Assembly (NCBI GenBank): GCA_026397405.1
Contig: JAPLUW010000001.1
Span: 107,138 to 171,137, forward strand
DNA: 64,000 nt
Direction: 5' to 3'
From: Candidatus Adlerbacteria bacterium
GTDB taxonomy: Bacteria > Patescibacteriota > Minisyncoccia > Phycocordibacterales > SBAW01
How positions within the stretch are numbered: position 1 is the stretch's first letter; every line of letters starts with the position of its first letter. Of this stretch, positions 32,891 to 61,158 are shown piece after piece. The translations under genes and the position numbers were made by a program. The notes under the pieces were generated by a model. The model was not told the DNA's origin, made no database searches, and saw only the letters and a list, made by a program, of their open reading frames with translations.

Positions 32891-33984
32891 AGGGGTTCCA
32901 AAACTTCGTGTTTCATACGCTCTGCCAGGATACCCCATTCATAGGACTTTGAAAGCTCTTGTCCCTGTCTGGCAACACGGCCCATTTCTTCAGGGTTTTC
33001 TATCATATGCCCCACAACCGCAGCAATACTTTGTGGGCTGTCTACGTCTACCACAAACCCCGTCTCTCCATCTTGTAAAAAGTCAGGAATACCTCCCACG
33101 GCAGTTGCAATAATAGGAAGCCCTGCTGCCATCGCTTCGATAAACGACGCTCCTTGGCCTTCCGACCGAGAGGGTCGGATAAAAATATCTGCTGTGTGCA
33201 AGTACCTAGGCATATCGTCGTGTGGCACATATCCCAAAAATTTTACACGACTCTCTACCCCCTCTTTTTTTGCAAGCGCACGCAGTGCCGTCTCGTCTGG
33301 ACCAGTACCTAAAATTTTGAACACTACATTTTGTGGCAACAACGGCAGCGCACGTATAACATCGTCGATAGCATTTTTATGCACCAAGCGTGACGTTGTA
33401 ATAAGTACCGTGCCTTCGTGTGGCACGGCTATTCCTGAAAACTTTTCCACATCGACACCGTTGGGAATAAGTACCAGCGGCCCAGTGTAGCCACGCGCAC
33501 GGGCCCATGCACCCAAGAAATTTGAAAGAGGCTGCACCACATCGGCCTTGGTAAATGCTCGAGTAAACAGCGGCCACAACGGAAGCATTCTCCGTTCAAT
33601 GTGTTTCGGCGGGTCTCCTTCCTGCAAATTTAATATATACGGTACTTCTCTGTGTCTTATTTTGAACAGAGCAGCAGGCACACCAGCCGAATGGGCCATC
33701 AAAGCCCATGTCGCGTCATAGTGATATATTTTTTGTAATGCACTCGCCTTCCATGCTGCAACAAACTGGAAGAAAAATTTATGCAGGGCACTGCTGCCTG
33801 CAAACCCCACACGATGTACGAGTACATTTCCTATCTTTTCCTCCTTCGCGTCGGTAGCAGAAAAACGCATCGTCACCATGTGGAACTCAATGTCTAGCAT
33901 TCTGTCTGTGAGTTCTTTTACAGCAACTTCAGCACCTCCTACATGGGGGTAATAGGCCAGGGAAAATATAAGGATTTTGCGCAT
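32875..33984 (-). CDS. Glycosyltransferase family 4
   Basis: MRKILIFSLAYYPHVGGAEV N-terminus and SRSEGQGASFIEAMAAGLPIIAT. Confidence 0.8.
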   Translation of the reverse strand: MRKILIFSLAYYPHVGGAEVAVKELTDRMLDIEFHMVTMRFSATDAKEEKIGNVLVHRVGFAGSSALHKFFFQFVAAWKASALQKIYHYDATWALMAHSAGVPAALFKIRHREVPYILNLQEGDPPKHIERRMLPLWPLFTRAFTKADVVQPLSNFLGAWARARGYTGPLVLIPNGVDVEKFSGIAVPHEGTVLITTSRLVHKNAIDDVIRALPLLPQNVVFKILGTGPDETALRALAKKEGVESRVKFLGYVPHDDMPRYLHTADIFIRPSRSEGQGASFIEAMAAGLPIIATAVGGIPDFLQDGETGFVVDVDSPQSIAAVVGHMIENPEEMGRVARQGQELSKSYEWGILAERMKHEVLEPLWKKQ

Positions 33985-34005
33985 AGAAAAAGGGTTGGGG
34001 TACCC

Positions 34006-35418
34006 CTATTCTATCTCAAACTCGTCTGCCGCGGTTTTGGTTGCACCTGAAAATCGCATATACGACGCGCCCGCAACACCAATAAGCAGTAGGCCTCCCA
34101 AACCTAGTACATACGTCCATAGAGGTAATGAAACGCCACTTGCGCCAGCCCCGGCCAAACTTGTTGAAGCTACCGGCAGAACAGCAGCTACTGTCGGTTT
34201 TGCTGTAGGAATATTTTTAACAAGTACCCGCGCAGCAGGAGCTTGGTTTACTACCGCAACAGGAATGGGTTGCATGGGTACAATAGTTTCTTCGTGTGGG
34301 ACAGCCGTTCCAACCGCTGTGCCATTTGTATACCGCAACGTTGCGTCTGCACTCGCATACATGTGCATCACTGATGTAGCAAAACGCACACTTTGGCCGC
34401 TTAAGATAAGAGTGTCCTGTGGGATAACAAACGTACTCGTTCCCGACGATACACTCCAAAGACCTATGTTTAATTCTTGCGACGAACGGTTGAGCACCAT
34501 CAATGACCCGTCTGGTTCGGCAAGTAGCCCGACCTGCGCAGGAGCAGCTTCGATAGTTATTCTGTTCATACCCGCTTGGTCGCCTGAAGCGACTGTCAGT
34601 ATTACTGCATATTTGCCTGGGTACACATAGGTGTGGAAGACTGTTTGTCCTCCATCTGTTGCACCGTCTCCAAAATTCCAAATGTAACGGGCATTTGCTA
34701 CCGCTGTGCCTTTTAGGTCAAACGCAGAGCCTGTAAAAAACGAACCGCCGCCAACCATCACCACACTTTGCGACTTTATCCGTGCAACCAAGGGGTCGGG
34801 CCCGACATTAGTAACAAGGTTCGTCTGTTGCGAGACCGTGTTTGTTGTTGAAGCTGAAGAGCCATTCCCGCCGGTGTCTGGAGGTGTGGGGTCAGGAGTG
34901 CTAGCACCACCCGAATATACACCTGGGTCGGCTATACCTGGGGTAAAAGTCGTACCACTTAGGTGGAGCGAATTACCGTCACCCGCGGCACCCATACTGC
35001 CGTCGTACGTTACCGAATGCTGCATCACGAGAGTAGAGTCTTTGAGCGCAATACTCTCTCCCGTGTTTGAAAGCGAAAACGAACTTTTAAGCAAGACTCC
35101 TGAAAAGGCCGACCAGTCTATGCCAAATTTTGTTGCATCGTCGACAATAACTGCCACGCCGCCTGGTGCCAACACCGCACTCCCTGAAAGCACCGTGATG
35201 CCGTGGTTAGTGTTTGCCTCAAAAAATTTATACCCGCTGACGTCGACTGCACTACTGCCTGTATTTGTTATTTCAACCCACTCGCGGCCCGTGTCGGTCC
35301 CCGACACATCGTACATAATTTCTGTTATTTGAACTGCGGCCAATGCACTTGTGGGCGCACATGTCAGTGCGACACAAAAAATAAAACGTACAAAAAAATT
35401 GTTAGGTGTTTTCATCAA
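34006..35418 (-). CDS. Secreted lamin-tail-domain (LTD) protein with a C-terminal membrane anchor
   Basis: Signal peptide MMKTPNNFFVRFIFCVALTCAPTSALA. LTD signature VQITEIMYDVSGTDTGREWVEITNTGSSAVDVSGYKF. C-terminal hydrophobic helix LGLGGLLLIGVAGA. Confidence 0.65.
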   Translation of the reverse strand: MMKTPNNFFVRFIFCVALTCAPTSALAAVQITEIMYDVSGTDTGREWVEITNTGSSAVDVSGYKFFEANTNHGITVLSGSAVLAPGGVAVIVDDATKFGIDWSAFSGVLLKSSFSLSNTGESIALKDSTLVMQHSVTYDGSMGAAGDGNSLHLSGTTFTPGIADPGVYSGGASTPDPTPPDTGGNGSSASTTNTVSQQTNLVTNVGPDPLVARIKSQSVVMVGGGSFFTGSAFDLKGTAVANARYIWNFGDGATDGGQTVFHTYVYPGKYAVILTVASGDQAGMNRITIEAAPAQVGLLAEPDGSLMVLNRSSQELNIGLWSVSSGTSTFVIPQDTLILSGQSVRFATSVMHMYASADATLRYTNGTAVGTAVPHEETIVPMQPIPVAVVNQAPAARVLVKNIPTAKPTVAAVLPVASTSLAGAGASGVSLPLWTYVLGLGGLLLIGVAGASYMRFSGATKTAADEFEIE

Positions 35419-37300
35419 GGGTCTCGTCGACCTTGAGCATTTCCTGCAGTACCTTTTCTGGTAAGTGTGCCGCCTGTCCCTGCCCCACTATTTTACCCAA
35501 AGTTTCTTTTAAGTCAGGGGCATGTACAGCCGCCGGCTGTGGAGATGTTTTTGGTGGTTGGGGTTGTGCAGGTACCCGCACAGGCTCTTGCACTACCCCA
35601 GCAGGTTTACCCATAGCGGAGGCAAGCGCTTCGCGCAAACTGTTTGTCCCGCCAAGTGGCGGTTTTGCTTGATGCTCTACGGGGCGCGGCGCAGGCACCA
35701 CCGGCTTTGGGCGTGGGGCCATGGCTGGAGCTGGTGTAGGAGCGGGAGCATGGACAGCAACCGGCCGGGGCGCTACTTCTTTTATAGGCACCGGGGCAGT
35801 GTGAACAGAACGTTGCGCGGGGGCAGAAGCACCGGGCGTATTGGTGCTGTGTGCGGCTGTGCTTGTAACAGGGTTATGCGAGCCACTTGAAGAAGCGTGT
35901 GGGGCTGGCTGAGAGGTTTGTGTTGCAGGGGCTTTTTTTGCAGCCATCGAGTCGGGCTCGGACCATTCGACAAGAGCTTTTTCAACCTCGGCACGAGGTT
36001 TTGTAAATTGAAGACGCGAACTTTCTATCACGTCATTAACAAAACTTGTAGGTGGCGGGTCAAACGCACGCATAGTTGTTGCTGAAAACGGCGGCGACCC
36101 GACACCGTCTATCATGAGTGTCAGGTAAATTTGTGCCATACCAAGGTTTACCAAGTCAGCTTGTGTAAATTGTGGACTAAAAATAGTTTCGAGCACCTCG
36201 GCGTCAAACGGCCCCACACGGAACGCAACGGTTGTGCCGACGTTCCCAAACACTGCGTCGCGCACCTCTTCTTCCATCTGCTCGATATACTGGTGTGCGA
36301 TAATCAAATTCAGTTTATATTTACGCGCTTCGGACAAAATGTCAGAAAAGCTTTCGTTCGCAAAGTTCTGGAATTCGTCGACATAAAAATAAAATGGTGG
36401 CAACTCGGCCATTGACTTTGCCGATACATCGGCGCGCGACATCGCCGCCAGGTAAATTTTGGTCACCAACATACTACCTATAAGGTTGGCGTTCACTTCC
36501 CCCACCCGCCCTTTTGAAAGGTTGATGATTAGGATCTTTTTATCATCCATCATTTTACGCAAGTCAAACGACGACTTTGGTTGGCCCACAATATTGCGAA
36601 TAAGGGGGTTCGAGGTAAACTGCCCAATTTTATTTTGAATCGCGGGCGTTGCTTCCTGGGTGTAGCGGTCGGTATAGTTTGCAAATTCTTCAGTCCAAAA
36701 GGACTTAACAGTTGGGTCGCCAATATTTTCCACAACTTTTTTGCGGAAGTTTTTATTGACCAACATGCGGTTTACATCGAGCAGAGTTGCACCCGGATAT
36801 TCCAAAAGCGCCAACAGAGTGTTTGAAAGAATATATTCCATGCGGGCACTAAATGCGTCTACCCACAACTTTTTAAAAGCCGAAAGCAGACCCGACACAA
36901 CCAAGTGTCGCTTGTCGTAGCCAACGTCTTCCATCACGTTAAAGGCAATAGGATGTTCCATGTCGAACGGCGCAAAATACACCACATCTTTAATGCGGTG
37001 CTCGGGCACATATTCCATAATGCGGTCAGCCGTGGAACCGTGCGGGTCTATAAACGCCATCCCTTCGCCATTGCGGATGTCCTGTATGGCCATATTTTCA
37101 AGCAAGGTAGACTTACCCATGCCCGTTTTACCTATGACATACATGTGGCGCGCGCGGTCGCGGCGCTTGATGCCAAACGGCACCCCTTTGCCACGGGAGT
37201 TTGTCTGGGCAAAGTATGTTATTTTTTCTTCGTCGTGCTGCACTCTAAAAGTATACCAGCCTTTACTGCATGGACAGTGTTTACAGTTGCACGGTGTCAA
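35402..37300 (-). CDS. TraD/VirD4-like (type IV coupling protein / DUF87-HerA-type) P-loop ATPase with a disordered Pro/Ala-rich C-terminal tail
   Basis: Walker A VIGKTGMGKST, Walker B FYFYVDEFQNF and TrwB_AAD_bind-like core. An N-terminal Cys cluster (CNCKHCPC) is present. The C-terminal roughly 190 aa are low-complexity P/A/V-rich. Confidence 0.65.
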   Translation of the reverse strand: MTPCNCKHCPCSKGWYTFRVQHDEEKITYFAQTNSRGKGVPFGIKRRDRARHMYVIGKTGMGKSTLLENMAIQDIRNGEGMAFIDPHGSTADRIMEYVPEHRIKDVVYFAPFDMEHPIAFNVMEDVGYDKRHLVVSGLLSAFKKLWVDAFSARMEYILSNTLLALLEYPGATLLDVNRMLVNKNFRKKVVENIGDPTVKSFWTEEFANYTDRYTQEATPAIQNKIGQFTSNPLIRNIVGQPKSSFDLRKMMDDKKILIINLSKGRVGEVNANLIGSMLVTKIYLAAMSRADVSAKSMAELPPFYFYVDEFQNFANESFSDILSEARKYKLNLIIAHQYIEQMEEEVRDAVFGNVGTTVAFRVGPFDAEVLETIFSPQFTQADLVNLGMAQIYLTLMIDGVGSPPFSATTMRAFDPPPTSFVNDVIESSRLQFTKPRAEVEKALVEWSEPDSMAAKKAPATQTSQPAPHASSSGSHNPVTSTAAHSTNTPGASAPAQRSVHTAPVPIKEVAPRPVAVHAPAPTPAPAMAPRPKPVVPAPRPVEHQAKPPLGGTNSLREALASAMGKPAGVVQEPVRVPAQPQPPKTSPQPAAVHAPDLKETLGKIVGQGQAAHLPEKVLQEMLKVDETLDENT

Positions 37301-37532
37301 CAGACTCTACGGCACGAATGTCGTTTACGCGGCCGGTGCTTTCAGCAAAGGGGTGATGTTCTGTTTTTTTAGATGGTTGTAAAAAAGTTTGTCCGCGCAG
37401 CAAAAACCCGAGCAGTGCAACAGCAGCACCTGCAAGCACCAGCAACACGGTGCGCCATGACGCAGGGATACCGAGGTACGGGACAATAATGACCCAAAAC
37501 CCGAGGACGATAATACCCATTTCCCGAGACAT
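37281..37532 (-). CDS. Small membrane protein (2 TM), hypothetical
   Basis: 83-aa ORF with two hydrophobic helices, immediately upstream of the ATPase gene and overlapping it by 20 nt. Confidence 0.35.
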   Translation of the reverse strand: MSREMGIIVLGFWVIIVPYLGIPASWRTVLLVLAGAAVALLGFLLRGQTFLQPSKKTEHHPFAESTGRVNDIRAVESVDTVQL

Positions 37533-37552
37533 ATGCCTATTCTATCACGGCC

Positions 37553-38281
37553 TTAGCGGCCTTCAACAATGACGACAAATTCACCCCTTTGCTTGTCTTC
37601 GTGTGTTTCAAAATATGCCAACACCTCTGCAGAGGTTCCAACCACATGCTGTTCAAACATTTTTGTCAGCTCGCGAAACACCCCTACCCTTTTTTCGGCA
37701 GGCAAATGTGCCGCCAGAGATGTGAGTGTTTTTATAATGCGGTGTGGCGACTCGTAAAAAATACTTGCTTGCTCGCTAACCGACATTTCTTTAAACAACG
37801 TCTCTCTCCCCTTTTTGACTGGCAAGAATCCATAAAAAATAAACGACGCGGCACGCAGACCCGCAACAGACAGCGCCGCAGCCAACGCAGATGCGCCGGG
37901 GATTGCTTCAAGCGGCATGTCAGGGAATTTCTCGCGCATGACAGACACGAGCTCGAGCCCGGGGTCGGAAACTCCGGGGGTGCCTGCGTCAGAAACGACT
38001 GCAACGTGCTTCCCTTCGTCCAACAAATTCAAAATCTTTTCAAAACCTTTTACGCCGCTGTTTGCATGGAAGGAAACCGTGGGTGTATGGATGTCGTAAT
38101 GTGTTAAAAGTTTTTTTGTAACACGAGTGTCTTCGCACGCGACAACGTCAGCCTCTTTGAGCACCCGCAAAGCACGCAGGGTGATGTCTTCGAGGTTGCC
38201 TATTGGGGTTGCGACCATAGAAAGCTTTTGCATGTATTGAGGGTACAGCGATTTTGGACTACGCACCAGAGGCACTTGCAC
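37553..38281 (-). CDS. rsmI: 16S rRNA (cytidine1402-2'-O)-methyltransferase
   Basis: TPIGNLEDITLRALRVLKEADVVACEDTR tetrapyrrole-methylase-type signature. The true start may be an internal Met (MQKLSMVATP at about 38233). Confidence 0.85.
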   Translation of the reverse strand: MQVPLVRSPKSLYPQYMQKLSMVATPIGNLEDITLRALRVLKEADVVACEDTRVTKKLLTHYDIHTPTVSFHANSGVKGFEKILNLLDEGKHVAVVSDAGTPGVSDPGLELVSVMREKFPDMPLEAIPGASALAAALSVAGLRAASFIFYGFLPVKKGRETLFKEMSVSEQASIFYESPHRIIKTLTSLAAHLPAEKRVGVFRELTKMFEQHVVGTSAEVLAYFETHEDKQRGEFVVIVEGR

Positions 38282-38424
38282 GGCTTTAGCGCCTGAAGCT
38301 CGGTCCTAGACCGCGTTCCCTCGGTCGAAGACCTTATAGAAACAAATCGTTCGGGGGAGGCCACACAGCCTCCCCATCACGTCCCAAGAACTAACCTTCT
38401 CTGGGGTGTTCTTGTTTTTATATT

Positions 38425-38453
38425 TGACATTGGCTTACAAAAACAGCATTATC
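38425..38453 (+). promoter_or_regulatory. Sigma70-like promoter (ttgaca-17nt-cattat) for a downstream small ORF
   Basis: ttgacattggcttacaaaaacagcattat. A GGAAGGAG RBS and a GTG start follow about 30 nt downstream. Confidence 0.4.
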
Positions 38454-38487
38454 GGGTGCAGAGTTTTGTTCACGGAAGGAGAAAGTC

Positions 38488-38694
38488 GTGGCTTTACACA
38501 GCAACATGAATGAACTTGCGCTTCTCCATGCGCAGACATGGGCGGAAGATCCTGACTTCGTTTGCAGAAAGTGTGGAAATCCCGCACGCAAAGAATTGGA
38601 GGGCAGCCATCGGTGGGGCTGCCTTACTTGCAAGGCAACAACGATCAACCCCGATACTCTTTTCGCGAAGAAAAAAGATCCTATTTCTGCCTAA
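38488..38694 (+). CDS. Small zinc-ribbon protein, hypothetical
   Basis: 68 aa with two CxxC pairs (CRKCGN ... CLTCK) and a strong SD ggaaggag 7 nt upstream of the GTG. Confidence 0.35.
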   Translation: MALHSNMNELALLHAQTWAEDPDFVCRKCGNPARKELEGSHRWGCLTCKATTINPDTLFAKKKDPISA

Positions 38695-38729
38695 TCTTAA
38701 TGCCACCAAAAGTACGGTGGCGTTTTCTT

Positions 38730-42897: not shown

Positions 42898-44719
<1,822 letters not shown>

Positions 44720-45079: not shown

Positions 45080-46075
45080 TCAAGCCTGGGTTTTAGGCAG
45101 TTTCTGTTCTAATTTATAGGCATTTCCGTGCCTCAAAAGCCCTATGTACGACTGTACGGTAGGACTGTCTCCTTCAAGCCCATGGGTGCATTTGAACATC
45201 CTTCGCTTAGTACTAGTTCGCAGTACTCGGTGGTCTGGGAAATGAACCCAACCTAAAAAGTCGACGCCGGAAGAAATAGTCTCTATTGATACTTTGTTCG
45301 GATGTAGTGTAAGGCGTAATTCGTTCCATAAAAAATCTCTCACCTGGACTAGCATATCTTCAAGCCATTTCTTGTCACAAGACAGAAACACAAAATCGTC
45401 TGCATAGCGGATATAGTATTTCACTTTGAGTTTATGCTTCACGAACTGGTCGAACTCGTTCATGTATATGTTTACCAAAAGCTGAGAAGTGAGGTTACCT
45501 AGTGGCAGACCTTTGCCTGGCGCAGTGCTATGGAAGCTCTCTACCACTCTCCTGACAAGACAGAGAATGTCAGTGTCTGGGATACGCCGGTCGAGTATCT
45601 TGTAAAGGATTTTTTGATCCACTGACGCAAAGAATTTCCGTATATCACATTTGAGCACCCAAAGTGTTTTTGTATTGTTACAGCTCGCTTTGGCGAAGTA
45701 TTTCTGGAACGCTTTTATGGCACGGTGCGTTCCTTTATACTTTCGGCAAGAGTATGAATGAGCGATAAATGTCTTATCAAAAAATGGATAGAGTTTCCTG
45801 TAAAGCGCGTGATGGAGCAGTCTATCCCGCACTAAAGCTTTATGGATATTTCTTGGTTTAGGATCAGAAATGTTGAAAGCGTAATACCCGCCATGGACAT
45901 ACGTTTTACTTTTAAGCTCCTCATGGAGAGCAACCATATTATCGAAAAGTTTGTATTGGAATTCGCGCACGTCTTGCTTACTACGTTTGCCCTTTAGGAA
46001 TTCGCGCCATGCGGCAAGCAGATTTTCGGGAGAAATGATATCTTCATATGTATGGTTGAAACAACTTTTACTCAT
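45080..46075 (-). CDS. Diversity-generating retroelement reverse transcriptase
   Basis: RT motifs including YADD (YIRYADDFVFL) and the DGR-specific LGNLTSQ (I/LGxxxSQ) motif. Size is about 330 aa. The ORF track extends it to a TTG at 46102 through a G9 codon run; the ATG at 46075 is preferred. Confidence 0.85.
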   Translation of the reverse strand: MSKSCFNHTYEDIISPENLLAAWREFLKGKRSKQDVREFQYKLFDNMVALHEELKSKTYVHGGYYAFNISDPKPRNIHKALVRDRLLHHALYRKLYPFFDKTFIAHSYSCRKYKGTHRAIKAFQKYFAKASCNNTKTLWVLKCDIRKFFASVDQKILYKILDRRIPDTDILCLVRRVVESFHSTAPGKGLPLGNLTSQLLVNIYMNEFDQFVKHKLKVKYYIRYADDFVFLSCDKKWLEDMLVQVRDFLWNELRLTLHPNKVSIETISSGVDFLGWVHFPDHRVLRTSTKRRMFKCTHGLEGDSPTVQSYIGLLRHGNAYKLEQKLPKTQA

Positions 46076-46131
46076 TCTCCTGAACGTACCCCCCCCCGAC
46101 AATTTGGCAACCGAAACTTATCCCCGTCGTA

Positions 46132-46485
46132 TTGAAATTAAAAGACGCCTATGGTGTCTGGCAGCACTATCTATCTGATTTCCCAAAAGCAAAACGTTTT
46201 ACACTCGGCTCAAAAATAGACGACGTATTTCTTAATGCAATTGAATATTGTTTTCTTGCAAGCTACAGCTCACAGGGTGAAAAATTGGTTCTACTTGATA
46301 GATGTATTGCGCGGACTGACCTTCTTAAGCTCTTACTTCAATTGGCGTGGGAAATTAAAGCTGTGGACAACAAAAAATATATCAATTTGTCCGAATATCT
46401 CACTGAAATAGGAAAGATGCTTGGGGGTTGGCGAAGACAAGTTATAAACAAAACTCCCGTCCACACAGGACGAGAGAAATCGTGA
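46132..46485 (+). CDS. avd: Avd-like four-helix-bundle protein (accessory variability determinant; PF05635 / 23S rRNA IVS-protein family)
   Basis: 117 aa. It matches the family pattern (KDAYGVWQ...FPKAKRFTLGSKIDDVFLNAIEYCFLAS...LSEYLTEIGKMLGGW). It has a TTG start and is divergent from the RT gene. The TR begins 6 nt after its stop. Confidence 0.7.
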   Translation: MKLKDAYGVWQHYLSDFPKAKRFTLGSKIDDVFLNAIEYCFLASYSSQGEKLVLLDRCIARTDLLKLLLQLAWEIKAVDNKKYINLSEYLTEIGKMLGGWRRQVINKTPVHTGREKS

Positions 46486-46490
46486 CGGTG

Positions 46491-46619
46491 GCGAACGGCG
46501 AGGAAGCGGTAGTTGCCATTCCAGTCGTTGTCCCACCAGTTGAGGTTGAGGTTACGCTTGCGGTCGTTCCGGCCGAGGTACGGAACGTTGCGGTTGTCAC
46601 CGATTTGCGCGACAGAACC
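46491..46619 (-). repeat. DGR template repeat (TR)
   Basis: 129 nt. It is identical to 46967-47095 except at 22 positions. At every one, this copy has T on the plus strand (A on the minus, coding strand) and the other copy has C, G or A. Confidence 0.85.
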
Positions 46620-46856
46620 TTGTGCAGGAGCATCGTCCATTCCACCACCCGTTGAATACTCTTCAGGCTGAATCGTACTCGCGATGTAATATATCGCAGG
46701 ACGCTCCGCACCAACTGTCTGTTTTTTATTAGCCGCACCGTACTCTCCAAACAGCCTTAACCATTTGAATTCTCACTCGTGCGGGTTGCGGACAAATTAT
46801 CTGAAGCCGTAACCTCAAATTTTTCACTTGTCATTATTGAGTATATAAAAGCAGAA

Positions 46857-46880
46857 CCGGCGCATGCAAGCATGCGCCGG
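46857..46880 (-). other. Perfect 11-bp inverted repeat hairpin downstream of the DGR target gene/VR (terminator and/or DGR homing-associated stem-loop)
   Basis: ccggcgcatgc-aa-gcatgcgccgg lies 48 nt 3' of the target stop codon. On the minus strand a moderately U-rich tract follows it. Confidence 0.5.
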
Positions 46881-46927
46881 GTAGAAGGACCAAAGTTTCC
46901 AAAGGTCCAAGTGCGAAGTCCAAAGCC

Positions 46928-47584
46928 TCAAGCGGCCGAGGACTGCTCGCCCGTCTTGACGACAGGGCGAACGGCGAGGAAGCGGCAGCCGCCATACCAG
47001 CCGCGGCCCCACCAGCGGAGGCGGAGGTTACGCCCGCGGCCGAACCGGCCGAGGCACGGAACGTAGCGGAAGTCACCGATCTGCGCGACAGAACCGAGGC
47101 CGATTATTGGGTACTTGCGCTGCTCCTCGGGATACTTCTCCCCGAAGGCGAGCAAGTGCTCAATGAGCGCAGGCTCCCAGCCTTCGGCCTTCATGGCCTC
47201 GACCACCTTCTCCGAAGAGATGTCGCGGTCGAAGTGGAAGAGCCGAGCCTCGGCGTACACGGTAACCTTACCCATGCCCGCACCCTTGAGCGGAAACCGC
47301 TTCGCAGTGATGTCGCTATTGGTCCAGTCATAGCGACCAAAAGCGACCATGTCCTCAAGCGTCCGGCCGTAGTCCACATCGAGGGTGAACGTATCGGTCG
47401 GCATAGCGACGCCGAGCTTGAGCGCGGCACGGATGGCGGTACGGTCGAGCACAGCGTCCTTGTCGCAGAGGTCGGCGAAGATGCCGCTTGCAAGAATTTG
47501 CTGCCAACGGTCGGGTGTCATACCCTTCTCGTCGAACAGCTTCATCTGAAGGGCCAGTTGGCCCGATGTCATCATCGTATCCAT
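46928..47584 (-). CDS. DGR target protein carrying the variable repeat at its C-terminus
   Basis: ORF 46928-47674. The start was chosen at MDTMMTSGQ (ATG 47584), which has an AAGGAA SD 8 nt upstream. The last roughly 45 aa (GLGSVAQIGDFRYVPCLGRFGRGRNLRLRWWGRGWYGGCRFLAVRPV) are encoded by the VR. The gene is about 62% GC, against about 42% for the RT gene. Confidence 0.75.
   Translation of the reverse strand: MDTMMTSGQLALQMKLFDEKGMTPDRWQQILASGIFADLCDKDAVLDRTAIRAALKLGVAMPTDTFTLDVDYGRTLEDMVAFGRYDWTNSDITAKRFPLKGAGMGKVTVYAEARLFHFDRDISSEKVVEAMKAEGWEPALIEHLLAFGEKYPEEQRKYPIIGLGSVAQIGDFRYVPCLGRFGRGRNLRLRWWGRGWYGGCRFLAVRPVVKTGEQSSAA
46967..47095 (-). repeat. DGR variable repeat (VR)
   Basis: A copy of the TR with substitutions only at TR-adenine positions. 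The invariant GC-rich 3' end (coding strand CCGCTTCCTCGCCGTTCGCC) is consistent with an IMH-like element. Confidence 0.85.
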
Positions 47585-47774
47585 TGGGACATTTCCTTTT
47601 GGATGGCTTTCCCTTTTGTGGGTTGGCCGTGCTAGCGGACGAAGCAAGGAATATTCCTTTTCGCCATAGCCCAAAAATGCCTACTTAATATTAAATAAGC
47701 GTCTATGGGCTATGGCGATTTCGCGAACGTGTAAAAGAACCACCTCTAATTATACACCATTTTAGGTAATTATG

Positions 47775-57615: not shown

Positions 57616-57730
57616 GTCCTGGCGACTACCTACTCTCGCGGCCGGTAAAGGCCACTACCATCGGCGCAAATGAGCTTAACTTCCGTGTTCGGAATGAGAA
57701 CGGGTGTGACCCCATCGCCAAGTCACCAAG
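57616..57730 (-). rRNA. rrf: 5S ribosomal RNA
   Basis: Reverse complement reads CTTGGTGACTTGGCGATGGGGTCACACCCGTTCTCATTCCGAACACGGAAGTTAAGC...GTAGTCGCCAGG, about 115 nt, 3' of the 23S. Confidence 0.9.
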
Positions 57731-57851
57731 ACAAAAAACTTAATCGGTAAGAAAGGACACCCTGGACCTGCTGGTCCGAGTGTATCGCGTCCCTTCGGAC
57801 GCTCAACAACAAATTATTGCGATTCTCAAGCAGACCCTTTTCTCCCCCCTT

Positions 57852-61158
<3,307 letters not shown>

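Follow-up and report, generated by a model that had tools for sequence, protein, structure and literature searches.

The window examined here is a stretch of 64,000 nucleotides from a chromosome of the candidate phyla radiation (CPR), that of Candidatus Adlerbacteria (Paceibacteria); positions are counted from its first letter. Three close-packed open reading frames (ORFs) on its minus strand, at 37281-37532, 35402-37300 and 34006-35418 in the window ORF list, are the subject of this analysis. They encode a small membrane protein of 83 aa with two transmembrane helices (2-TM protein, 37281..37532; hydropathy and family hidden Markov model, HMM), a soluble ATPase resembling type IV coupling proteins (T4CPs) of the VirD4/TrwB type (613 aa from a GTG start, 35402..37243; Pfam and homologue matches), and a surface-anchored protein of LTD-PKD-LTD-like architecture, LTD denoting the lamin tail domain (470 aa counted from TTG, 34006..35418; Pfam and iterative HMM). 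All three genes of the earlier reading of this DNA, hereafter the original prediction, were recovered as close-packed minus-strand ORFs and are real. Profile searches and the predicted fold identify the ATPase as a T4CP homologue, and the three proteins may together form a module for DNA capture and translocation, with import as the favoured direction.

The T4CP-like ATPase and its family

The P-loop ATPase ORF of T4CP type is present as originally predicted, but its length of 632 aa follows from a first-start rule. The identical NCBI protein (100% identity, annotated from Candidatus Adlerbacteria) comprises 613 aa and begins with GTG at 37243, and among the 150 matches listed, full-length homologues begin to align at query residue 20-27 in every case, matches beginning later than residue 27 being N-terminally truncated hits; for these two reasons GTG 37243 is taken as the true start. 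All four cysteines of the ORF lie in residues 1-19, and the remainder of the ATPase contains none. The N-terminal cysteine cluster of the original prediction, and with it a zinc-binding site, was therefore discarded as an artefact of ORF extension by read-through upstream of the GTG codon. Conservation of the ATPase begins about 30 residues before Walker A. With the corrected start, a gap of 37 nt separates the 2-TM gene from the ATPase gene, and no overlap is left.

The core (ORF residues 20-450, 35951..37243), as delimited with AlphaFold2 (AF2) and Foldseek, consists of a nucleotide-binding domain and an inserted all-alpha domain. Three Pfam families passed their cut-offs, namely TrwB_AAD_bind (32.7 bits, cut-off 20.5), TraG-D_C (31.7 bits, cut-off 22) and T4SS-DNA_transf (25.8 bits, cut-off 20.1). 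The original prediction had named the first and third of these, together with DUF87 and FtsK, as models by which its assignment could be checked; DUF87 scored 22.5 bits, below its cut-off of 23.2, and FtsK_SpoIIIE gave no match at E <= 0.01. The NCBIfam conjugation models remained far below threshold (best conju_CD1115, representing CD1115-type VirD4, with 49.5 bits vs 250; SXT_TraD with 46.7 bits vs 366), and CedD matched weakly and over the P-loop only (22.9 bits). When the family profile was compared with all PDB sequences, only TrwB (7e-6) and DotL (1.7e-4) were found. Walker A (GKTGMGKST, ORF residues 57-65, 37106..37132) is invariant in alignments A2 and A3 and aligns with the P-loop of TrwB, and the Walker B strand (FYFYVDE, ORF residues 303-309, 36374..36394), whose residues V, D, E and F are invariant in alignment A3, aligns with the LFIDE motif of TrwB.

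The AF2 model of the core reached a pLDDT of 92.2 and a pTM of 0.90 with an alignment that included the long-form homologues described below, which are about 50% identical; with only >80%-identical homologues the pLDDT was 40, and adding the long forms raised it to 92. A block of helices occupies core residues ~109-233 of the model, between the two Walker motifs, and the end of the model falls below a pLDDT of 55. In Foldseek searches of the PDB, the query-normalised TM-scores were 0.60-0.63 for Cag-beta, 0.58 for DotL, 0.54-0.60 for TrwB, 0.53-0.55 for VirB4 and 0.42-0.52 for HerA, the last two ranking below the T4CPs; the alignments to TrwB (404-451 columns), Cag-beta and DotL were nearly whole-length, and FtsK was absent from the top 50 matches. 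Pfam, PDB profile and fold ranking thus agree with the TrwB/TraD/VirD4-type core that had been predicted. Because Foldseek favours T4CPs and places no FtsK in the top 50, the ATPase is, on profile and model evidence, a T4CP homologue of the VirD4/TrwB type. Two other identities were considered and rejected: an FtsK/SpoIIIE protein (no Pfam match, none in the Foldseek top 50, no transmembrane segment), and a HerA-type protein (DUF87 below cut-off, HerA TM-scores under those of T4CPs, no nuclease gene in the neighbourhood).

What the ATPase has in common with TrwB of R388, VirD4, Cag-beta and DotL is a TraG/VirD4-clade nucleotide-binding domain with Walker A and B, the inserted all-alpha domain and the predicted fold (TM-scores of 0.54-0.63). 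It differs from them in sequence (13-16% identity), in its long Pro/Ala-rich tail, and in lacking the two-helix N-terminal membrane domain (maximum KD19 hydropathy 1.29, no transmembrane segment) and a nearby type IV secretion system (T4SS) or relaxosome. Since it lacks a transmembrane domain (TMD), is not linked to a T4SS or relaxase, and falls far short of the curated NCBIfam equivalog thresholds, the protein should be called T4CP-like rather than be filed as a coupling protein.

Relatives of the ATPase are numerous (22,073 clusters at 50% identity with E <= 1e-3, 5,987 at E <= 1e-30) and fall into two forms, a long one of 850-1,140 aa and a short one as in the window. Long forms, which occur in Microgenomates, Berkelbacteria and other groups, combine an N-terminal membrane segment and DUF8128 with the same core. 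Their neighbours include a second DUF8128 ATPase, a Sigma70_r4/HARE-HTH gene, SecDF and a weak T4SS_pilin match. Four of the loci (L081-L084, e.g. L083:3636-11423) contain two long-form DUF8128 and T4CP-like paralogues a few kb apart, among many small unannotated ORFs, and may represent a Patescibacteria T4SS-linked version of the family. A long form aligned over both domains with a 913-aa protein of a Bacillus subtilis plasmid (WP_144625398.1, NZ_OX419581.1, annotated as 'DUF87 domain-containing protein'; 24% identity over 746 aa, E 4e-42), and the window core aligned with the same protein across the nucleotide-binding and all-alpha region (29% identity, E 3e-36). The plasmid gene lies directly upstream of relaxase, TcpD, TcpE and VirB4-like genes; from this relaxase/Tcp context we infer that WP_144625398.1 is the coupling protein of its plasmid, which its record does not name as such. 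Unlike it, the window protein has no N-terminal DUF8128-like domain, is chromosomal, and has no transfer genes nearby. As the long form and the plasmid protein share both domains and the window core aligns with the latter, the short form, judged by sequence, appears to descend, by truncation and loss of the N-terminal part, from a Firmicutes-type T4CP-like protein. Such an origin agrees with the derivation of the Patescibacteria T4SS from monoderm conjugation machinery (PMC12102498).

Loci carrying short forms were collected from GTDB species representatives (80 loci) and, with distant short forms as query, from metagenomes (80 loci). The ATPase is single-copy in every locus, and a DUF8128 N-domain encoded by a separate gene was found neither in the window nor in the 80 genome loci. 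A mobile-element origin of the window locus was rejected, as there are no close plasmid or phage relatives, the best being 37% identical; this relative from outside CPR, a soluble short homologue of 395 aa (L169:7001-8188, plasmid NZ_CP081110.1 of the alphaproteobacterium Sulfitobacter), is an orphan gene among transposases. Bacillus plasmids and SPO1-like phages carry 25-29% identical relatives, hypothetical proteins of the Bacillus phages CampHawk, SP82G and G are 25-28% identical, and a Priestia megaplasmid has a 35% identical relative in pieces. The literature on DUF8128 and on FtsK in Patescibacteria yielded nothing useful.

Conservation was expressed as the median identity to the window protein in the species-representative and the metagenome loci, respectively. 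The medians were 77% and 71% for the ATPase core, 60% and 54% for RsmI, 50% and 43% for MurD, 49% and 41% for MurC, and 32% and 32% for the adjacent surface protein. The ATPase core evolves more slowly than the adjoining MurC, MurD and RsmI.

The long Pro/Ala-rich tail was likewise described correctly in the original prediction: the last 182 residues (35405..35950), with 18% Pro and 17% Ala, are probably disordered, as judged from composition. They contain short conserved islands (SLREALA and PDLKxTL, alignment A2) and, from the comparison of short forms, a conserved C-terminal motif, LPEKVLQEMLKVDE (35423..35464); among the short-form ATPases listed, most carry the pattern [PE]E..L[RK]..L.V[DE] or PFEVPEDALRKVLKGE at this end. 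The tail of one short-form ATPase (P0131) carries an S1 nucleic-acid-binding domain (residues 506-579, E 3.6e-22). Another tail (P0186) gave a weak treble-clef zinc-finger match, and a similar Cys-containing stretch was noticed by eye only in a third (P0181).

From its T4CP fold and family, the ATPase could be a trans-acting coupling protein of a chromosomal T4SS (typically near dnaA) that exports DNA or protein to the host, with the surface protein as an adhesin or as an accessory for extracellular DNA. We regard such a role as unlikely. It would fit the long-form paralogues with their second DUF8128 ATPase and weak T4SS_pilin match, the architecture shared by long forms and the relaxase-linked plasmid protein, and a surface protein comparable to the surface adhesins of Gram-positive conjugation systems. 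By analogy, the conserved short motifs in the ATPase tail recall the tails with which T4CPs such as TraD recruit their partners; the TraD tail carries the TraM recognition site, as the Pfam family name says. However, no T4SS component was detected within 6-10 kb in ~165 short-form loci, and the short form lacks the membrane and N-terminal domains of the long form and the plasmid protein. Moreover, the all-alpha domain, normally the variable, substrate-recognition part of T4CPs, is strongly conserved in the alignment of the ATPase. Published data bear on both sides. In Patescibacteria, t4cp is often far from virB4 (PMC12102498), and T4CPs without TMD can be recruited by a membrane protein (PMC7431656); on the other hand, relaxases are nearly absent from Patescibacteria, and in S. 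epibionticum the t4cp homologue is dispensable whereas the T4SS is essential (PMC12102498, PMC10633639).

Quinonero-Coronel et al. (2025) counted 5,713 orphan T4CP homologues in 2,918 Patescibacteria genomes, 148 of them near virB4, and stated that exaptation of these proteins "cannot be ruled out" (PMC12102498). The window ATPase is very probably one of these orphans: like them, it is chromosomal and has no relaxase, and most of them are far from virB4. Patescibacteria encode chromosomal T4SSs elsewhere, usually at a distance from the T4CP homologues (PMC12102498). Hence the predicted coupling-like ATPase without a T4SS holds only locally, among the window ORFs scanned and in the ~165 related loci. 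As far as a term search of its text shows, the T4CP homologues are only counted in that report; it contains no division into long and short forms, no conservation analysis, no 2-TM protein, no LTD or ComEA neighbour and no envelope context, and the word 'lamin' is absent. Judged from term searches of the literature, the long/short split, the N-terminal loss, the conservation of the short form, the 2-TM partner, and the LTD/ComEA neighbour with its domain exchange appear to be new.

The 2-TM protein and the surface protein

The prediction of a small 2-TM protein 5' of the ATPase agreed with hydropathy, which gave two hydrophobic helices in the 83-aa product. They form a hairpin with a short outer loop (IPASWR), followed by a hydrophilic C-terminal tail of ~38 aa. 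Neither Pfam nor NCBIfam gave a match; by iterative HMM, a family with the consensus MSkexxlIlLGilvxlxPflGxPxsWrt...GfxlR was obtained. Of 150 short-form loci, 128 have its gene upstream of the ATPase gene and on the same strand, 55 of them with the two genes directly adjacent, as in the window. An intervening gene, where present, codes in most cases for a putative glycosyl hydrolase (DUF4015) with a membrane anchor and sometimes for a CapA-like protein. The DUF4015 hydrolase (Pfam E down to 1e-98, weak GH114 and GHL6 similarity) stands between the two genes in 55 loci (L006-L040 and many metagenome loci, e.g. L014:8657-9961) and is absent from the window. Rosetta-stone fusions of 2-TM protein and ATPase were not found; in the representative set, proteins extended at the N-terminus proved to be either truncated long forms or unrelated.

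One recognised class, a minority of T4CPs (class iii), lacks the TMD and pairs with a separate membrane protein, TraJ/TraI of pIP501 being an example (PMC7431656). The window pair resembles TraJ/TraI in combining a soluble T4CP-type protein and a small membrane protein from one array, and in topology, the only feature compared, the hairpin of two helices and a short external loop resembles the membrane domain of TrwB/TraJ. It differs from the pIP501 pair in that more than half of the loci have the 2-TM gene split from the ATPase gene by another gene, and in the absence of a T4SS.

For the surface protein, which is 95% identical to the NCBI entry 'lamin tail domain-containing protein [Candidatus Adlerbacteria]', ATG 35415 is the probable start, with TTG 35418 as alternative. 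The reported overlap of 17 nt with the ATPase gene applies to the TTG codon and shrinks to 14 nt if ATG is the start. The predicted combination of signal peptide and LTD was confirmed: residues 1-27 (35338..35418) constitute a signal peptide ending in TSALA before A, from a hydropathy segment at residues 8-31 and the sequence pattern, and residues 23-138 (35005..35352) match LTD (PF00932, E 4.1e-21, 75.8 bits, threshold 34.3). A PKD domain follows at residues 229-288 (34555..34734; PKD_4 8.4e-12, PKD 2.4e-8). An iterative HMM seeded on the first LTD revealed a second, divergent LTD-like domain at residues ~286-425 (34144..34563), which Pfam misses. The C-terminal part consists of a transmembrane anchor at residues ~431-454 (34057..34128; hydropathy segment 428-454) and a cytoplasmic tail of 16 residues (34009..34056) ending in the acidic-aromatic sequence DEFEIE. 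Because of its signal segment, C-terminal membrane helix and cytoplasmic tail, the sequence describes a type-I anchored surface protein, not a freely secreted one; of the secreted LTD protein originally proposed, the signal segment remains, and the anchor, the tail and the second LTD-like domain had been overlooked.

Most positional orthologues also have a C-terminal hydrophobic segment. The family architecture runs from a signal peptide through an LTD, a ComEA-type helix-hairpin-helix (HhH) domain or neither to PKD, an LTD-like domain and a transmembrane helix, and short versions consist of signal peptide, LTD and transmembrane helix only. Among 54 positional orthologues, Pfam detected LTD in 40, PKD in 37 and HHH_3 in 13. 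The NCBIfam model TIGR00426 ('ComEA helix-hairpin-helix repeat region') scored above its cut-off of 53.1 in two of five tested proteins (72.3 and 71.4 bits). LTD and HhH occupy the same N-terminal slot; in the window protein, Pfam finds no HHH domain, and LTD stands in its place. When mapped onto a neighbour-joining tree built from 135 ATPase cores, first-domain type required at least 19 changes among 89 tips, vs 27.3 in shuffles. From these type changes, the outer domain appears to have been swapped many times at a fixed genomic position. Change counts on this tree are rough, since the tree of so conserved a protein is probably poorly resolved.

Surface proteins of Adlerbacteria-type loci, and those of many metagenome loci, carry an acidic-aromatic motif, [DE][DE][FYW]x[IV], close to or at their C-terminus. 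Kaiserbacteria-type surface proteins (L041-L080 and L133-L158, e.g. L055:11777-13159) end in a terminal helix, F[KR]SPWTLGFLGxxxLAGxAFILL, with no basic residues, which could be an unrecognised C-terminal sorting or anchoring signal; PxSW in the loop of the 2-TM protein resembles the motif of this helix. Co-variation of the ATPase C-terminal motif with the tail type of the surface protein merely tracks lineage.

The tail motif gives rise to another explanation, in which the ATPase is directed at proteins: it would recognise the acidic-aromatic tail, or further substrates, and help to insert, turn over or display the surface protein, perhaps in concert with glycosylation by the neighbouring GT4 glycosyltransferases. 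T4CPs also handle protein substrates with C-terminal signals, as in the VirD4 and DotL systems, which lends support to this idea; so do the position of the motif on the cytoplasmic side, the GT4 gene cluster directly downstream, and the analogy to accessory Sec and glycosyltransferase clusters for adhesins. Nevertheless it is improbable, as the surface protein, with its ordinary N-terminal signal peptide, does not require a dedicated exporter, the tailless Kaiserbacteria-type orthologues are accompanied by the same ATPase, and many lineages keep the ATPase without the surface gene.

Gene neighbourhood and a possible role in DNA import

According to the original prediction, the LTD gene should be kept beside the ATPase gene in relatives if the two belong together. 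In loci with enough downstream sequence, the first annotated gene 3' of the ATPase gene encodes an LTD/HhH/PKD protein in 56 of 69 genome loci and 32 of 65 metagenome loci (88/134 in total), the stop codon of the ATPase gene and the start codon of the surface gene often overlapping; in a reverse search with the PKD and LTD-like part, four of four surface-protein homologues have the ATPase directly upstream. The association is thus conserved. It is embedded in an array that recurs across the class in the order MurD, MurC, RsmI, 2-TM protein, DUF4015, ATPase, surface protein, epimerase and GT4 genes. All recurrent neighbours scanned are envelope genes (MurC, MurD, glutamate racemase-like, FemAB-like, GT4s, epimerase, UDP-glucose dehydrogenase). 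Conjugation genes are missing, as had been predicted: VirB4, relaxase and other T4SS genes were found neither among the window ORFs scanned nor within 6-10 kb in the ~165 related loci.

The reading we favour, with a probability of roughly 0.35, is a DNA-capture and translocation module composed of the 2-TM protein, the soluble T4CP-derived ATPase and the LTD/ComEA-HhH surface protein. This three-gene Paceibacteria unit would handle DNA at the cell envelope. Double-stranded DNA from outside the cell would be captured by the surface protein; the 2-TM hairpin, likened here to a detached T4CP membrane domain, the acidic-aromatic tail of the surface protein, or both would tether the ATPase to the membrane in trans; and ATP-driven movement of DNA by the ATPase would proceed through a channel encoded elsewhere, most likely ComEC. 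The ATPase would thereby fill the motor role of ComFA in Firmicutes. A link to DNA is suggested by the ComEA-type HhH of positional orthologues and by the S1 domain in P0131. The ComEA-type domain makes import more likely than export; the chain from ATPase through surface protein to DNA import, direction included, is our inference. Family size, single copy and conservation of the core speak for a core cellular role of the ATPase, which we count in favour of the DNA-import module. A bolder version is rather doubtful: a coupling ATPase without membrane domain, running in 'reverse', would have become a core gene of Paceibacteria and an import motor replacing ComFA, tethered by the 2-TM protein and the receptor tail, with LTD as a DNA-binding module interchangeable with the ComEA HhH.

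The functional analogy to ComEA/ComFA of Gram-positive competence lies in the combination of an anchored extracellular protein that binds double-stranded DNA with a cytoplasmic ATPase, and the HhH of positional orthologues matches the ComEA family model. Yet the window protein has LTD instead of HhH, the ATPase is of T4CP type whereas ComFA is a DEAD-box helicase, and no comEC or comF is linked. ATPases of the T4SS family are used for DNA uptake in ComB of Helicobacter pylori and Ced of Crenarchaeota (PMC12857230); those systems differ in employing VirB4/HerA-type ATPases and dedicated membrane channels, components that were not found here. The conserved com set of CPR bacteria comprises ComEC, DprA and ComFC, with no ComFA or ComEA listed (Wang et al., PMC10633639).

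Several observations weigh against the DNA-import module. Searches of the ~165 related loci for ComEC, DprA, ComF, pilus and nuclease genes were negative, and comEC, comF, dprA and type IV pilus genes are likewise missing among the window ORFs scanned. About one third of the lineages have no surface gene at the position adjacent to the ATPase; in these 46 of 134 loci the next gene encodes a GT4 (27), an epimerase (11), MurD (2), another glycosyltransferase (1) or an unannotated ORF (5), and in 22 of 65 metagenome loci a GT4 gene follows directly, sometimes overlapping the ATPase stop codon. The 2-TM gene is ~1.1-2 kb from the ATPase gene, with another gene between, in 73 of 128 loci; where it was detected along with RsmI (99 loci), the two are less than 400 nt apart in 91. 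Kaiserbacteria-type surface proteins, ending in F[KR]SPWTLGFLG...AFILL, have no cytoplasmic tail. LTD is a domain of no established function and no demonstrated DNA binding, and it is dispensable for DNA degradation by ExeM in vivo (PMC6085458). In Saccharibacteria, finally, neither the com genes nor the t4cp homologue is required for growth (PMC10633639; PMC12102498), which sits uneasily with the strong conservation of the ATPase if DNA uptake were its sole role. Measured by these observations, the minimal DNA import, export or tethering system of the original prediction is kept in part, through the T4CP-type ATPase, the conserved LTD neighbour and the ComEA-HhH orthologues; it is not free-standing but placed inside an envelope array, without linked ComEC, DprA, ComF or nuclease genes, and the surface protein is not always next to the ATPase.

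The location of the pair inside a conserved envelope array implies that part of the ATPase-surface adjacency is inherited synteny. Taken to its full extent, this would mean that the genes share an inherited order but no mechanism, the ATPase serving as a housekeeping translocase, for instance of chromosomal DNA at division or in an envelope-linked process of the dcw/polysaccharide supercluster, and the surface protein as an unrelated adhesin. We consider this explanation somewhat unlikely, although the recurrence of the same order from MurD to GT4 across the class, the envelope or cell-wall nature of all recurrent neighbours scanned, the GT4 genes directly after the ATPase gene in metagenome loci, and the contrast between a slow, housekeeping-like ATPase and a fast surface protein (77% vs 32% median identity) all speak for it. 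The presence of the surface gene is also phylogenetically clustered on the ATPase tree, with at least 14 changes vs 38.6 in shuffles, a further point against the DNA-import module; the same count suggests that the gene was repeatedly lost or gained. Through these gains or losses and through the domain swaps, however, the surface gene has held its position, and it persists in loci in which the upstream block was not detected (L037, L110, L124, L130, L163). The frequent overlap of stop and start codons likewise speaks against inherited order alone, and the ATPase is unlike FtsK in Pfam and in fold ranking and has neither the N-terminal membrane domain nor the gamma (KOPS-binding) domain of FtsK.

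Patescibacteria account for a very large part of bacterial diversity; they are incapable of nucleotide synthesis, are naturally competent where tested, and have neither a recognised uptake motor nor ComEA in their conserved com set. Thousands of their orphan coupling-protein homologues are of openly unknown function (PMC12102498). The locus thus raises hypotheses on the role of orphan T4CPs, on the power source of DNA uptake in CPR bacteria and on the ligand of the bacterial LTD. If the bolder version were true, the bacterial lamin tail domain would receive its first assigned function, as an extracellular DNA-binding module; if only gene order were inherited, the conversion of a plasmid-transfer ATPase into a core gene of the chromosome that evolves slowly would still be striking.

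Flanking signals and other features of the window

A promoter-like site (TTGAAG, 16 nt, TG-TAGAAT; 37539..37566, minus strand) lies 5' of the 2-TM gene, and a terminator-like hairpin with T-run (33990..34007, minus strand) comes right after the LTD stop codon and before the GT4 glycosyltransferase gene, which begins with ATG at 33984, 21 nt after the 470-aa ORF. Both are weak candidates from consensus scans only, the promoter-like site because such sites are no more numerous in the region than in shuffled sequence. One transcription unit spanning the 2-TM, ATPase and LTD genes is weakly indicated, the promoter and terminator scans giving non-significant support. Upstream, the ~450 nt between rsmI and murC (38282-38729) contain no minus-strand ORF of >=100 aa; a terminator-like hairpin lies on the plus strand of this gap (38699-38724), and no Rfam family matched at the gathering threshold. 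The remaining window ORFs scanned include SecA, a Wzy_C/TPR protein, MurB, SecDF, FtsW and many glycosyltransferase genes.

A diversity-generating retroelement is located beside the 16S gene on the minus strand (45080-47674). Its reverse transcriptase ORF (45080-46102) matches RVT_1 (Pfam, 7e-23), and the template repeat of 130 nt (46490-46619) is 83% identical to a variable repeat (46966-47095) in the 3' end of an unannotated 248-aa ORF (46928-47674); all mismatches within the repeat are at template adenines (AAC to NNC pattern). The 16S (43269-44719) and 23S/5S genes (57617-61155) are unlinked, protein genes lying in the 13 kb that separate them, and the 23S gene of 3,299 nt carries a group I intron at 58184-58383, both features being typical of CPR genomes.

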